Shown here piece after piece: positions 56,431 to 60,209 of a DNA stretch of 64,000 nucleotides; positions within the stretch are counted from its first letter, which is position 1; every line of letters starts with the position of its first letter. The position numbers and the translations under genes are program-made. The DNA is taken from positions 627,985-691,984 of the forward strand of contig JBBTWE010000001.1 of assembly GCA_038062955.1 (NCBI GenBank). Reading direction: 5' to 3'. The notes under the pieces were generated by a model. That model saw only the letters and a list, made by a program, of their open reading frames with translations. It was not told the origin of the DNA and did no database searches. The DNA is from Patescibacteria group bacterium (GTDB lineage: Bacteria > Patescibacteriota > Minisyncoccia > Phycocordibacterales > BOKC01).

Positions 56431-56464
56431 AAAAAAACACCCGCAAGTCCTATGACTGCGGGTG
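56431..56464 (-). terminator. Rho-independent terminator (minus strand) at the left edge of the GC-rich island
   Basis: On the minus strand: caccCGCAGTCatagGACTTGCGGgtg followed by TTTTTTT. Confidence 0.55.
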
Positions 56465-56502
56465 GTGAACGATTTTCTTCCCTTTTTCTGCTCGACGCTC
56501 CT

Positions 56503-56608
56503 GTAGCACACCCCCCATCGTATTCGGTGTTCTGCTACCAGATCGTCCAAGGGGGTTCTATTACCCTTATGTAGCACACCCCCTCCATCGTATTCGGTGT
56601 TTTGCTAC
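56503..56608. repeat. two direct hairpin repeats (36 and 38 nt) separated by a 32-nt unique spacer (CRISPR-like mini-array)
   Basis: Unit 1 is gtagcacaccccccatcgtattcggtgttctgctac (56503..56538). Spacer is cagatcgtccaagggggttctattacccttat (56539..56570). Unit 2 is gtagcacaccccctccatcgtattcggtgttttgctac (56571..56608). Each unit folds as gtagca...tgctac with an inner cacc/ggtg stem. Confidence 0.4.
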
Positions 56609-56944
56609 TTAAGAAATGAGCTGTGGGGGTTTTCTTGCCTACCTTCTTGTGAAGGCAGACAAACATCATTCATAGGGGCTCAATCCTATGACGGCCCTGC
56701 TACGGGGCAAAGATGAGGCGTTTCTGCCTGCATCCACAAGGAAGAAATCGTTATGTGAGAAAAACATCTCAAACCGTCCTAAAACGGTAGGTGTTCTTCT
56801 CATGTCTCTCAAGGTGCTGTTCCTTGGACACACTAGCATGAGGGAGGTGGGGTGTCAAGGAGAATCAGCTTGCGTTTATTTTTAATCTATGATATAGTCG
56901 CAATAGATAAAGTTCTTTAACAATCAACCAAAAAGGAGGCTCAA

Positions 56945-58219
56945 GTGGCTAAAGGCACAGAACGACGAGTCCTATACCGTGTGGAGAAATTCGAAATTCA
57001 CCCAACTCCAGAACAATTTGCGGTGCTTCTCACAGTGAGTCGCAATCTGCTTGTGATTTGGAATGAAGCGCTCGCAGAGCGTAGCAAATGCTTCGACGAG
57101 TTCATCGCACCAATCTATGCGGAGATGAAAGGAGTGGCAGACAGCGAACGCGTCAAAGAGCTTCGCAAGAAGCTTAAGGATGCGTTCAAGGAGCACAGTG
57201 TCACTCTGTTCGATCAGATCAATACACTTACAGGGAAGCGAGCGAATGATTCAACCTTCGCCGTCGTACCTCGTTCGTGGCAGGAGGAAACACTCGATGC
57301 GCTCGATGGCGGATTTAAGTCATTTGTCGCTCTTCGCAAGAATAGCGACCATGATGCGCGTCCGCCGCGTCCTCGATTCCCTGAAGGTTTCTCCGAGATT
57401 CCTGGGAGGTTTGGATTCAAAGTTGGTGGGGGTGTATTCACGATCTCTTGTGCGAAGATTGCGCCGGATGTCGAGCTTACGTTTCCTATCCCGGCATACC
57501 AGCAGGAGAAGCTCTCTCGGGCACTCGAAATCAAAAAGTTCACGCTCTTTCGCGATGAGCGTAATCTCAAGCGGGCGGGGCGATTCTGGGTTTCGATTGC
57601 GTACGAAATCGAAATGCCCGCCACGGGAAGTTTCGTGCCGGAGGATGCAGTTTATGTGTCTTTAGGTGCGTCATCTCTCGGGATTGTGTCGCTACAGGGC
57701 AAAGAAGTTGTGAAGCTATGGCGGCCCGATCTCAACTTGAAACCGCAGGTAGACGCCATCGAGGCAAGGATGAAAGCTAACCTTGTCGCCTATCCAGCTT
57801 ATTCTCGGAAATGGAAACGTTTTCGCGAAGCAAAGCGCCGGGTGGAAACCAAAATGGCTCGTCAACAGAAGCAGGATCAGAGGGAAGTTGCGGTAAAGAA
57901 GATTCTGCGGCATGGAATCCATGTGGTCGTGACGGAAGTAGTTGTTCGAAGCAAGAATGCCGCGCTCGCTGACAGTTCCAAACCTGAAAGAGGCGGTTCT
58001 CCCAAAGGTCTCAATTGGTCTGCGCAAAACACTGGAAGTTTTGCTCGGCTCGTTGCTCATCTCGAGGAAAAGGCCAAAGAGCGTGGCGGGACGGTGCGTA
58101 AGCACAAGGTTGTGCTAGCAGTGCCTCCTCCTTGCATTGGGCATGAGAACAAGATCTGGATGGCCGAGCGTCTACGTGAGAGTTTCCTCCAGTCTCTTCG
58201 AATGGGAGTGGTGGAGTAG
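56945..58219 (+). CDS. TnpB-family (IS605 OrfB-like) protein, apparently nuclease-dead and lacking the zinc-finger and RuvC-III C-terminal region
   Basis: GTG start with an AAAGGAGG ribosome-binding site. N-terminal HPTPEQFAVLLTVSRNLLVIWNEAL matches the TnpB PtxeQ...R.vyN motif. The RuvC-I position reads YVSLGAS instead of GIDLG; the RuvC-II-like VVTEVV is retained. The FARLVAHLEEKAKERGGTV region (YKAE-like) is present, but the protein ends before any CxxC zinc finger or DxNAAxNI motif. GC-rich codon usage. Confidence 0.6.
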   Translation: MAKGTERRVLYRVEKFEIHPTPEQFAVLLTVSRNLLVIWNEALAERSKCFDEFIAPIYAEMKGVADSERVKELRKKLKDAFKEHSVTLFDQINTLTGKRANDSTFAVVPRSWQEETLDALDGGFKSFVALRKNSDHDARPPRPRFPEGFSEIPGRFGFKVGGGVFTISCAKIAPDVELTFPIPAYQQEKLSRALEIKKFTLFRDERNLKRAGRFWVSIAYEIEMPATGSFVPEDAVYVSLGASSLGIVSLQGKEVVKLWRPDLNLKPQVDAIEARMKANLVAYPAYSRKWKRFREAKRRVETKMARQQKQDQREVAVKKILRHGIHVVVTEVVVRSKNAALADSSKPERGGSPKGLNWSAQNTGSFARLVAHLEEKAKERGGTVRKHKVVLAVPPPCIGHENKIWMAERLRESFLQSLRMGVVE

Positions 58220-58223
58220 TACA

Positions 58224-58261
58224 GGCGTGTGGTGCAATCAAATGCATCGCACGCCTTTTTT
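58224..58261 (+). terminator. Rho-independent terminator after the TnpB-like gene
   Basis: ggcgtg...cacgcc stem followed by TTTTTTG, starting 5 nt after the stop codon. Confidence 0.5.
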
Positions 58262-58465
58262 GTTATCATATATACATAAATGCTTTATGGCTCAATCGAA
58301 TATTTGCATAAAAAATTCAAAGTTTTCTCCCGAAACCGCAAAAAGTATTATTAGAATTCAAATTTTGAAAAGTTGACATTATTACAAATTGTTCTATCCT
58401 GAAAAAGGATTGCATTCCACAACCATTTCGGTTGTGGATATAACAAAAAACCACAAGGACACCTC

Positions 58466-58945
58466 ATGTATCGCAATTGGCCGGAAATCTGCAAGATTGG
58501 CAAAGAGAATCGGTTACTTATGATTCTCCTTTCCACTGTCGATCTGGAAAGCAAGATCGGGAAAAGTCTATCCACGGCTTTTCCGGGATGTTTCCTGGAG
58601 ACGCGTACTGGAAAAGAGCTTTTCTACTCGCTTTCAGATCTACGAGCTGAGGCGAAGGGTTTGCACGCCCAACTTCACCCCGATGAAGAGGCGGTAGATA
58701 GAATGTTGGTGACTCACGATGTGCTTACTCCGCATGATATACCGCACATCTCTTTCAGTAGTCTATTCGTAGATAACGTCCCTGACCTGCCCCTCCCCGA
58801 GGATATTCGTCAGGATGCTGAAGTTGGCGATGTCTTCAACTACGGCAGTGGATTCGGTGTCGGAAAGTGGGTTGTTGTAGAAAACAACGGAGGGTTTTTG
58901 GCTATAGCTCCTGGCGAGTGCGTGTTCCCGGTTTCCTGGGATTGA
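58466..58945 (+). CDS. hypothetical protein (GC-rich island)
   Basis: 159-aa ORF with GC-rich codon usage; no recognisable domain. Confidence 0.3.
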   Translation: MYRNWPEICKIGKENRLLMILLSTVDLESKIGKSLSTAFPGCFLETRTGKELFYSLSDLRAEAKGLHAQLHPDEEAVDRMLVTHDVLTPHDIPHISFSSLFVDNVPDLPLPEDIRQDAEVGDVFNYGSGFGVGKWVVVENNGGFLAIAPGECVFPVSWD

Positions 58946-58983
58946 TCCTGGCCACACAAGCACATAAAGAAGAAAATCGTCTC

Positions 58984-59019
58984 ACCGCCCGCAGTCACAG
59001 GACTTGCGGGTGTTTTTTT
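58984..59019 (+). terminator. Rho-independent terminator, near-identical inverted copy of 56431..56464
   Basis: caccgCCCGCAGTCacagGACTTGCGGGtg followed by TTTTTTT. Confidence 0.6.
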
Positions 59020-59108: not shown

Positions 59109-59168
59109 AATGGGCGTTCGAATTTCCGAATATTCCATCCATCACACACTGCCCAAAGGAGGCATTCC

Positions 59169-59549
59169 ATGAACTTCCGTCGCACGTTCGGTCTGATCGT
59201 TCTTTTCTTTCTTCTCATCTGCGGGGGTTGCGAAGCCTTCAAAAACGCCATTACCTCCCCAGCGTATTCTCTGGTGATCACGAACAACACTAACGTCCCA
59301 TTAAACATCGAATGGGGTGGGAAGATGCAATGCGAAGGGCTTGAGACGGGGAAAACCTATCCTTTCGAACTGTGGGCTTTTCAGGCGGGTGGGCAGATGG
59401 TTTTAGAGGCCAAGGGTTACCATGGTGGCAGATACATCGGCACAACTTCTCGCTCATGGTCTCTCCCTTACCAGAATCACACCCAAGAGTTCTGGATAAT
59501 CGAAAGTCTTTCTCCGCCGGTCGACGTGACCACAAATCGACGACCTTGA
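59169..59549 (+). CDS. small putative lipoprotein (paralog 1)
   Basis: AAGGAGG ribosome-binding site; signal peptide ending LLICGGC (lipobox-like); SPAYSLVITNNTNVPL motif shared with paralog 2. Confidence 0.45.
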   Translation: MNFRRTFGLIVLFFLLICGGCEAFKNAITSPAYSLVITNNTNVPLNIEWGGKMQCEGLETGKTYPFELWAFQAGGQMVLEAKGYHGGRYIGTTSRSWSLPYQNHTQEFWIIESLSPPVDVTTNRRP

Positions 59550-59588
59550 GGCACGCAAACACTTCGGTGTAAGCGTGCCTTTTCTTTT
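59550..59588 (+). terminator. Rho-independent terminator ggcacgc...gcgtgcc plus TTTTCTTTT
   Basis: GC hairpin plus T-run immediately after the stop codon. Confidence 0.6.
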
Positions 59589-59638
59589 AGGATTTTCACT
59601 CCCAACTATTGCTAAGATATTGGTCTATTACGTTATCC

Positions 59639-59667
59639 TTGACAAATAAGATTCATTCGGTTACAAT
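59639..59667 (+). promoter_or_regulatory. consensus sigma70 promoter: TTGACA, 17-nt spacer, TACAAT (second copy)
   Basis: Exact consensus hexamers with 17-nt spacing upstream of lipoprotein gene 2. Confidence 0.55.
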
Positions 59668-59722
59668 ATAAGAGGAATTCAGAACTACCGAATTATGCCA
59701 AAACGCCTAAAGGAGGCACACA

Positions 59723-60109
59723 ATGAATCTGTACCGCACTCTCAGTCTCTTCGTTCTTTTCATCAGTTTCTCGATTCTCGGTGGATGTGCTACTTCGGAC
59801 AGGTTTTCCTCTCCCTCGTATTCCTTGAGGATCGTCAACAATACGAATACCGTTCTGATTCTCGAGGAGGGCCGTGACACCATGCGCAGTCACTTCGAGC
59901 CGGGAGAAACCAGTTACCATCAAAGATGGGGTTTCCGGAACAACCATGAGATTTCTTTCGTGGCCACAGGATTTGTGGGCAACAAGTACATTGGGTTCGC
60001 AACATACACGGGGCATGCTTGTCTCGACAAGATGTTGGACGAAGTGTGGGTGATTCAAGAGCTCACTCCTCCCATGGAGATCGTTTCGGAGAAGGAAGGG
60101 AAGAAGTAG
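59723..60109 (+). CDS. small putative lipoprotein (paralog 2)
   Basis: AAGGAGG ribosome-binding site; signal peptide ending SILGGC; SPSYSLRIVNNTNTVL motif. Confidence 0.45.
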   Translation: MNLYRTLSLFVLFISFSILGGCATSDRFSSPSYSLRIVNNTNTVLILEEGRDTMRSHFEPGETSYHQRWGFRNNHEISFVATGFVGNKYIGFATYTGHACLDKMLDEVWVIQELTPPMEIVSEKEGKK

Positions 60110-60119
60110 GACAACAAGG

Positions 60120-60162
60120 GGCACGCAAACACTATTCAGTGTGAGCGTGCCTTTTCTTTTGT
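60120..60162 (+). terminator. Rho-independent terminator ggcacgc...gcgtgcc plus TTTTCTTTTG (second copy)
   Basis: Near-identical to 59550..59588. Confidence 0.6.
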
Positions 60163-60209
60163 AACTTCCATATTTGCATTATTTAAATATCTGATTCAAC
60201 ATTAACCAC

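Follow-up and report, generated by a model that had tools for sequence, protein, structure and literature searches.

Does a sharp rise in guanine-plus-cytosine (GC) content within the low-GC genome of a Patescibacteria bacterium mean that DNA has recently arrived from a GC-rich donor? The question is raised by a stretch at positions 56431-60165 of a 64-kb piece of contig JBBTWE010000001.1 (assembly GCA_038062955.1; this piece, 64,000 nucleotides long, is called the window throughout), which lies between pilB and tsaE and holds a TnpB-like gene of 424 codons, a mini-array of two repeats, an open reading frame (ORF) for a protein of 159 amino acids (aa), and two paralogous lipoprotein genes. The original prediction, which listed this gene content correctly and in the right places, took the stretch for a recent horizontal acquisition from a higher-GC donor or for an assembly chimera. 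We propose instead, and consider it likely, that it consists of two unrelated pieces lodged in the pilB-tsaE slot of a Patescibacteria (Paceibacteria-type) genome. The first (~56405-59043) would be a lineage-specific insertion with inverted terminators around it, made up of a reduced type V-F Cas14e module of the CRISPR kind (short palindromic repeats, clustered and regularly interspaced) and an unrelated 159-aa gene. The second (59044-60165) would be a tandem of lipoprotein cassettes native to the slot, in which GC content, promoters, AAGGAGG sites, and terminators are conserved while the mature proteins diverge fast.

Two proposed pieces in one slot

The shift in composition and codon usage is real. 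GC content is 48.0% in 56431-60165 and 37.1% across the rest of the window, which bears out the direction of the contrast first reported while showing its figures (50% versus 33%) to have been slightly overstated. In sliding windows of 300 nucleotides (nt), GC content climbs from 0.36 to 0.50 at ~56450, reaches a maximum of 0.55, and is down to 0.38 by 60200, so that composition does return to that of the host at tsaE; the same profile has an internal trough of 0.34 at 58250-58550 that had gone unmentioned. GC content at third codon positions (GC3) is 0.53, 0.51, 0.58, and 0.64 in the four genes of the stretch, compared with a mean of 0.306 (standard deviation 0.043, maximum 0.404) in 44 host ORFs. 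Elsewhere in the window, at 44000-49000, there is a second and milder rise, to 0.43-0.44 per kb from ~0.37.

The expression signals also stand apart from those of the surrounding genes. The two TTGACA-17-TACAAT promoters, at 59070 and 59639, are both present, near-perfect rather than perfect as had been claimed: each has 11 of the 12 consensus positions, and just five sites on both strands of the window are as good. AAGGAGG lies upstream of the 424-aa gene and of each lipoprotein gene, three of the four in the stretch, as against GGAGG at -20 to -4 in none of 47 host ORFs in the window when first-ATG starts are assumed, which upholds the earlier view that such ribosome-binding sites are atypical here. 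It seems that the host genes do without canonical Shine-Dalgarno sites, in agreement with the non-Shine-Dalgarno motifs at many ORFs of a Roizmanbacteria genome from the Candidate Phyla Radiation (PMC6509639). The strong GC-hairpin terminators that had been described were found as well, five in number (Table 1).

Comparison with relatives divides the stretch in two. The neighborhood ruvB-pilB ... tsaE-polA is preserved in three loci whose PilB is 94% identical to that of the window (L024-L026, the closest in the database) and in a more distant one (L027, PilB 70% identical). Between pilB and tsaE, L024 has a 128-nt spacer and two lipoprotein genes and L027 has one lipoprotein gene; cas14e and the 159-aa gene are absent from the slot in both. 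Homology between the window and L024 breaks off at ~56404 and resumes at ~59044. The CRISPR module with the 159-aa gene, and separately a hairpin element upstream of pilB (described below), are therefore specific to the lineage of the window. Recent horizontal acquisition thus fits the left 2.6-2.8 kb, which is missing from the slot in L024 and L027, and does not fit the lipoprotein genes, which are syntenic.

The lipoprotein cassettes are native to the slot and are not a recent acquisition. In the relatives the lipoprotein genes are as GC-rich as here (GC3 of 0.56-0.61, compared with 0.20-0.42 in their neighbors) and are preceded by promoters of the same type (TTGACA-17-TACAAT in L024, a perfect TTGACA-17-TATAAT in L027), both with AAGGAGG. 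Given this synteny, equal GC content, and sharing of promoters, the features that look foreign are long-standing traits of the cassettes. The promoter, 5' untranslated region, and signal peptide of cassette 1 are almost identical to those of L024, their DNA being more conserved than pilB, whereas the mature lipoproteins at the slot are just 25-49% identical (L024 2351-3508; L027 5250-5747). The protein of cassette 1 is 49% identical to its L024 orthologue at the same slot, that of cassette 2 is 30% identical to the product of a 176-aa gene of L024, and the two share 34% identity with each other. This pattern suggests, as far as sequences can tell, that the mature lipoproteins are surface-exposed and subject to diversifying selection or to cassette exchange, and the pilB-tsaE slot may be a hypervariable surface-protein locus.

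The Cas14e module

The 424-aa protein belongs to the Cas14e branch of type V-F effectors. It matches the PADLOC profile PDLC01225 (Cas12_x1, 'CAS-V-F; effector') with E=8.6e-161, its residues 1-417 aligning with positions 1-401 of the 402 in the profile, and shares 51% identity with GenBank QBM02463.1, 'CRISPR-associated protein Cas14e.1' (P0016 among our homologues). The database holds 79 homologues at 40-58% identity, and those with informative labels all come from Patescibacteria, many of them low in GC. An AlphaFold model built on 75 homologues (predicted local distance difference test score, pLDDT, 91.4) has a TnpB/Cas12f-like fold (WED, REC, RuvC), and its top Foldseek matches include ISDra2 TnpB (8h1j, 1.6e-12), AsCas12f (8j12, 6e-11), and, at rank 4, dCas12f (9n9c, 1.2e-10). 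Of the 85 positions conserved in at least 90% of the family, 80 are kept here, close to the family mean of 81.4.

One point of interest in this family is the state of its nuclease site. The intact RuvC triad and zinc-finger (TNB) domain of an active nuclease are lacking. In a profile alignment, the RuvC-I motif GVDLG of a TnpB-derived PDB chain falls on 'aLGas' in the family; at the critical column, position 239, the window has serine, and 75 sequences have alanine (50), serine (22), or one each of cysteine, histidine, and lysine, with an acidic residue in none. Position 400, two before a conserved asparagine and the usual site of the RuvC-III aspartate, is histidine in the window and unconserved in the family (histidine, arginine, glutamate, alanine, or serine). 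A CxxC motif is absent from the last 75 residues of the window protein, as it is from all 75 sequences. The C-terminus is short: in the model the terminal helix comes just 14 residues after the last RuvC strand, and alignments to TnpB profiles run out 50-90 positions ahead of the C-terminal end of the profile. From the missing RuvC-I aspartate and zinc finger, loss of nuclease activity is predicted for the Cas14e family, with binding of DNA without cutting the most likely outcome, and these proteins probably silence their targets.

A self-target in one related locus (L043) bears on the same point. Its leader-proximal, that is newest, spacer (7424-7455) matches at 31 of 31 positions a target on the same contig (4125-4155). 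The target belongs to an insertion-sequence (IS) element: it lies within an ORF for a transposase of the DDE (rve-type) class (minus strand, 3950-4867), just upstream of the locus's own cas14e and 0.8 kb from it. An active DNA nuclease does not normally tolerate such a self-target, and its being tolerated fits binding without cutting. The literature that we searched contains neither experimental work on Cas14e nor mention of the missing RuvC-I residue, although the original Cas14 paper (Harrington 2018) was outside that search and the point is possibly known.

The guide-RNA part of the module lies upstream of the effector gene. The array adjacent to the effector is minimal, with two non-identical repeats around one spacer, and its sense strand is the minus strand, only the upstream, inverted unit of scaffold and array being left. 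The repeat that we call R1 shares its ends, GTAGCAGAAC...TGCTAC, with the 39-41 nt repeats of related loci. Related loci have a promoter of the form TTGAC(A/G/T)-17-TAnnnT at the place of the scaffold promoter seen here, and one of them, L018, has TTGACA-16-TATAGT as the counterpart of the effector promoter. Across the scaffolds of 11 loci, the window included, RNAalifold predicts 31 pairs, of which compensatory changes back 17, and by inspection a scaffold loop (GTAGCA or a variant) and the repeat's 3' end vary together in L018, L022, and L023. Nowhere in the window does an Rfam family attain its gathering score. A 34-nt segment follows the last repeat, and its distal 12-17 nt recur in the right inverted-repeat arm; it is perhaps another guide resembling a spacer, or else what is left of a degenerate repeat. 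A motif at 56848, GGTGGGGTGT, was considered as a plus-strand anti-repeat and dropped, the sense of the array being minus and the motif lying inside the minus-strand promoter.

We propose that divergent promoters would drive the effector on the plus strand and, on the minus strand, a transcript of ~390 nt consisting of scaffold, repeat, spacer, repeat, and terminator. Effector and guide would together bind matching DNA and block its transcription without cleavage.

How far the module is reduced can be judged from 57 related cas14e loci, 16 of them from GTDB genomes (14 labelled as Patescibacteria lineages) and 41 from metagenomes. In nearly all of them cas14e is directly followed by a gene for a 233-aa Cas1, and then by a promoter of its own, ~200 nt of GC-rich conserved non-coding sequence, and the array, in which 3-13 repeats of 39-41 nt follow one another with a period of 70-73 nt up to a decaying last repeat and a terminator. 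The Cas1 of the family, ~233 aa in ~50 related loci (for example L018 7299-8000), corresponds to the C-terminal catalytic domain of Cas1 profiles alone; in the loci that were read closely we saw neither cas2 nor cas4, though no systematic search was made. The window agrees with the branch represented by QBM02463.1 in its match to the CRISPRCasTyper/PADLOC Cas12_x1 profile, its repeat ends, the position of its scaffold, and its layout of promoter and AAGGAGG. It differs in having a stub for cas1, two repeats and one spacer rather than 3-13 repeats, only the upstream inverted unit, and the foreign 159-aa gene in the usual place of cas1, scaffold, and array.

Several of the related loci (L016, L021, L023, L031, L048, and L049) carry scaffold and array twice, as inverted copies to either side of the cas genes, and in L016, L023, and L031 the distal flank is duplicated with them; since such units flank the cas genes many homologues are found on contigs of ~2.2 kb. 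The two arrays of L049 mirror each other spacer for spacer. Such mirroring possibly reflects a true architecture, invertible or mirrored, although for L049 an effect of assembly is also possible. In the closest clade, L031 is a cas1-less module with 50% GC in a host with 33% GC. It has a perfect 20+20 nt palindrome (CATACACTAAAAAATCACGA/TCGTGATTTTTTAGTGTATG, 3002-3041) exactly at the site of the missing cas1, and a tRNA-like sequence at the edge of its island (~3960-4040).

In the window, a stub is all that exists of an adaptation gene. Its ATG is now ATA, a stop codon follows 11 codons on, and the sequence is cut at about codon 35; this cas1 remnant is what forms the AT-rich trough at 58250-58550. 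With cas1 reduced to this stub, the module can no longer acquire spacers and is frozen with its one guide.

The 159-aa gene that follows is a genuine protein family. The protein matches nothing in Pfam, NCBIfam, PHROG, or PADLOC, and its model (pLDDT 89) finds nothing below E=0.4 among PDB and BFVD folds. A role as a Cas accessory was considered and rejected: the 57 cas14e loci contain no homologue, and the closest homologue lies in an unrelated context, an ordinary bacterial neighborhood with 46% GC. We treat the gene as cargo unrelated to CRISPR. One homologue (P0103) has an extra C-terminal tail of ~70 aa that resembles, by eye, the C-terminal helix-hairpin-helix domain of the RNA polymerase alpha subunit, a hint that the family may have a role related to transcription.

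Two kinds of repeat are candidate boundaries of the inserted DNA. The first is an exact 16-nt direct repeat, with one copy where homology to L024 ends and the other at the truncation point of cas1; any exact repeat of at least 16 nt in the region has a chance of ~0.005. The second is an inverted pair: over 46 nt the left arm shows 91% complementarity to 58982-59027, and an adjoining 12 nt pair with 100% complementarity. By analogy, the right arm is most readily taken for a distal flank and the last trace of a lost right-hand array, because the array-distal flanks in L016 and L023 are also inverted repeats. The left piece resembles a classical genomic island in its atypical composition, its absence from close relatives (~56405-59043), its bounding repeats, and its seat in a variable intergenic slot, but differs in being just 2.6 kb long, in a GC bias that belongs to its gene family, and in the lack of an integrase, transposase, or tRNA: no integrase, transposase, or tnpA ORF is found, and no tRNA in 48-64 kb.

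Outside the GC-rich DNA, as its AT-rich neighbor on the left, lies the hairpin element mentioned above, which is the pilB upstream hairpin of the original prediction and whose terminal inverted repeats (CCCGTACGAAGT/ACTTCGTACGGG) are 14 nt long and perfect (fold z = -4.2). A second copy, at 29144-29258, sits flush at the dnaA ATG in the same orientation relative to the gene, and the element is missing upstream of pilB in L024. It could be a mobile element like a miniature inverted-repeat transposable element (MITE) or a shared 5' leader.

Table 1. Features of the GC-rich stretch and its borders, with mirrored arms of related loci (positions refer to the window unless a locus is named)
Feature	Position	Strand	Basis or remark
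MITE-like hairpin element, 113-115 nt, AT-rich	56273..56387	-	flush against pilB start codon
Direct repeat copy 1, 16 nt, CATTATTACAAATTGT	56389..56404	+	host-like pilB-upstream sequence; L024 homology ends
Left inverted-repeat arm with guide-RNA terminator	56423..56480	-	9-bp hairpin 56436-56466, T-run, ends ~56430
34-nt segment after last repeat	56469..56502	-	read from sequence
CRISPR repeat R1, 36 nt, sense GTAGCAGAACACCGAATACGATGGGGGGTGTGCTAC	56503..56538	-	homologous to repeats of related loci
Single spacer, 32 nt, sense ATAAGGGTAATAGAACCCCCTTGGACGATCTG	56539..56570	-	between R2 and R1
CRISPR repeat R2, 38 nt, leader-proximal	56571..56608	-	homologous to repeats of related loci
Tracr-like scaffold, ~215 nt, five conserved helices all kept	56609..56824	-	alignment with 10 related loci
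Scaffold/array promoter TTGACA-17-TAGTGT	56831..56858	-	read from sequence
Effector promoter TTGCGT-17-TATAGT	56870..56898	+	read from sequence; AGGAGG at 56934-56939
Cas14e-family (type V-F) effector, 424 aa, predicted nuclease-dead	56945..58219	+	PADLOC profile, homology, fold
Effector intrinsic terminator	58223..58256	+	14-bp stem, then T-run
Decayed cas1 stub, 33% GC	58257..58376	+	aligns with effector terminator and cas1 5' end of L018, L008, L009
Promoter-like site of 159-aa gene, TTGACA-16-TATCCT	58373-58400	+	holds direct-repeat copy 2
Direct repeat copy 2, 16 nt	58377..58392	+	exactly at cas1 truncation point
159-aa gene	58466..58945	+	61 homologues of ~155 aa, E<=1e-3
Right inverted-repeat arm, terminator of 159-aa gene	58969..59027	+	inverted copy of guide-RNA terminator
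Lipoprotein cassette 1	59044..59588	+	promoter 59070-59098, AAGGAGG, coding sequence 59169-59549 (126 aa), hairpin terminator
Lipoprotein cassette 2, tandem paralogue	59600..60165	+	promoter 59639-59667, AAGGAGG, coding sequence 59723-60109 (128 aa), same terminator type
GC-hairpin terminators	56436-56466 (minus), 58223-58256, ~58985-59013, 59549-59588, 60118-60160		seen in sequence
Mirrored scaffold-array arms, L016	5171-5895 / 8032-8612		arms 99-100% identical
Mirrored scaffold-array arms, L023	5368-5897 / 8031-8486		arms 99-100% identical
Mirrored scaffold-array arms, L049	643-1181 / 3813-4351		
Mirrored scaffold-array arms, L031	1094-1478 / 3166-3625		

Competing explanations

Several observations weigh against the account given here. 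The spacer has no target in the 64-kb window (full spacer with up to 3 mismatches, and 10-mer seeds; no match of at least 16 of 32), exact 20-24-mers of the spacer and the 34-nt segment have no match in IMG/VR, and those of the spacer have none in JGI metagenomes; with no target found, any activity of the module is hypothetical, and what is left could be a relic. The effector has an acidic candidate for RuvC-II, Glu331 (aspartate or glutamate in 72 of 75 sequences), and glutamate is common next to the RuvC-III position. The 16-nt direct repeat and the inverted terminator pair suggest different boundaries for the insertion. Only two relatives were compared at the slot, and the module could have been lost in both instead of gained here, which is less parsimonious. 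Finally, the lasting GC-richness of the lipoprotein and cas14e genes is left without an explanation.

The alternative that fares best keeps the same structure and takes the CRISPR module to be an inert relic on its way to deletion. The cas1 pseudogene, the two non-identical repeats with their one spacer, the disappearance of the right-hand scaffold and array, and the lack of a protospacer in our searches are all what such a relic would look like. Decay of this kind has nevertheless spared the effector ORF, which is intact and as well conserved as in active-looking relatives (80 of 85 residues), the scaffold, which retains every covarying helix, and both promoters and both terminators; moreover, useless DNA is usually lost fast from a genome of ~0.7 Mb. 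We regard a relic as possible but unlikely. Continued activity of the module, like binding without cutting and the order of the insertion events, is what we infer; the composition, the independent assemblies, the family membership, the missing catalytic residue, the conserved scaffold, the cas1 stub, the absence from relatives, and the synteny of the lipoprotein genes are what the data show.

Other systems show what an active module of this kind might do. Cas12m and Cas12c keep their RuvC site for the processing of CRISPR RNA. The Cas14e family lacks the RuvC-I acidic residue and the zinc finger and has no detectable sequence relationship to either. It has in common with them a small type V effector with an array, and the silencing predicted for Cas14e would by analogy resemble the way in which Cas12m (type V-M) and Cas12c are described as protecting the cell, by DNA binding and a block to transcription that leaves the DNA uncut (Wu et al., 2022 and Huang et al., 2022, in the passages of PMC13472631 that cite them). 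The exapted, nuclease-dead dCas12f with sigma-E (PMC13472631; PDB 9n9c) and TldR (bioRxiv 10.1101/2023.11.30.569447), which likewise bind DNA under RNA guidance and block its transcription uncut, share with Cas14e the fold, the RuvC loss, and a shortened C-terminus, and the window resembles them in having no adaptation gene and a single fixed guide. It differs from them in lacking a sigma-factor, helix-turn-helix, fliC, or oppF partner (its neighbors, pilB and the 159-aa and lipoprotein genes, are not repeated beside cas14e in the 57 loci), in that no guide match to a nearby promoter turned up in the 64 kb searched, and in carrying its guide in repeat-spacer form behind a long scaffold, within a family that retains Cas1 and variable arrays. 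One could go further and suppose that the whole Cas14e branch is a nuclease-dead adaptive system, with a Cas1 reduced to its C-terminal domain, mirrored units, and silencing of mobile elements as its task, and that the module in this ultra-small genome, with cas1 lost and one guide left, is at an early step of exaptation to a fixed RNA-guided repressor, the first in Patescibacteria. This is a speculative idea that we consider doubtful.

To return to the reading of the stretch as two unrelated pieces, it was weighed against a single island of 3.7 kb, transferred recently from a higher-GC donor and not yet ameliorated. The abrupt shift in GC and GC3, the atypical AAGGAGG sites, and the consensus promoters are what such a transfer would bring, and the left 2.6 kb is truly absent from relatives. 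The right 1.1 kb, on the other hand, is syntenic in relatives with PilB identities of 94% and 70%, where it is equally GC-rich and has the same promoters. Nor does GC content serve as a clock, since the GC3 of cas14e exceeds that of the host in 10 of the 12 related loci with usable flanks (by 0.135 on average), whereas the GC3 of cas1 is on average 0.063 below that of the host and is lower than that of the adjacent cas14e in 14 of 14 loci. Such opposite biases in neighboring cas genes are not expected from simple arrival out of a GC-rich donor; high GC is a trait of the cas14e family and not a mark of recent transfer. The Shine-Dalgarno sites, too, are present on cas14e and the lipoprotein genes in relatives as well as in the window. 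A search for the nearest taxon points to no donor, the best non-self match of the effector being 58% identical and its informative homologues all lying in Patescibacteria, many of low GC. The island has no blastn match in phage and plasmid collections, and no cas14e relatives were found on IMG/VR contigs. The higher-GC donor first postulated is not needed, and a single recent island is improbable.

A TnpB of the IS200/IS605 type, encoded with an omega-RNA on a selfish transposon, would account for the TnpB-like appearance of the 424-aa gene. The two have an ancestral fold in common, and traces of kinship remain in a sub-threshold N-terminal match to HTH_OrfB_IS605 (E=0.005, the only Pfam match), in 26 bits to NCBIfam guided_TnpB (cutoff 100), and in a weak match to a PHROG 'transposase' family. 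The V-F effector profile, though, is stronger by more than 150 orders of magnitude. The RNA is upstream and divergent, in repeat-spacer-repeat form, rather than an omega-RNA overlapping the 3' end of the gene; no TnpA accompanies the protein, and the intact nuclease needed for homing is missing. The locus is CRISPR-associated, its relatives having cas1 and multi-spacer arrays, and the spacer and, by inspection, the whole module have no second copy in the 64-kb window. We find a transposon origin of this kind highly implausible.

The integrity of the assembly can be judged from independent data. Nine contigs encode the very same 424-aa protein; they come from an NCBI metagenome-assembled genome (GCA_964363395.1, a 703,865-bp contig labelled Patescibacteria group bacterium), several ENA assemblies of replicates from Hainich site H43, and one by Logan. 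Wherever they overlap the window over 56301-60250, seven contigs, assembled independently from at least six samples, have 0 mismatches to it, and four of them (14.6 kb to 704 kb, with one of 84.6 kb) span both junctions, from ruvB/pilB on one side to tsaE/polA on the other. The two shortest contigs stop at or near the inverted-repeat arms, as assemblers are expected to do at genuine repeats. A chimera joining reads of two organisms, for which the jump in composition alone speaks, is virtually impossible given that separate samples and assemblers yield identical sequence and that four contigs bridge both edges.

Composition and possible silencing in Patescibacteria

At the core of the stretch, a known CRISPR family gains a new and reduced member, which sits beside native, compositionally odd lipoprotein genes. 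It follows from this case that a sharp jump in GC content and codon usage in a low-GC Patescibacteria genome cannot be relied on as evidence of recent transfer or a high-GC donor: cas14e and the lipoprotein cassette of the pilB-tsaE slot are GC-rich in almost every host examined, and come with near-consensus promoters and with Shine-Dalgarno sites, which the host genes lack. The locus itself is compact (~1.8 kb for effector and guide): its Cas12f-fold protein is seemingly unable to cut, one guide is left to it, and an adaptation gene is missing. Should the module be active, natural silencing of the CRISPR-interference kind would reach into the Candidate Phyla Radiation, and the locus would supply a very small scaffold for DNA binding.

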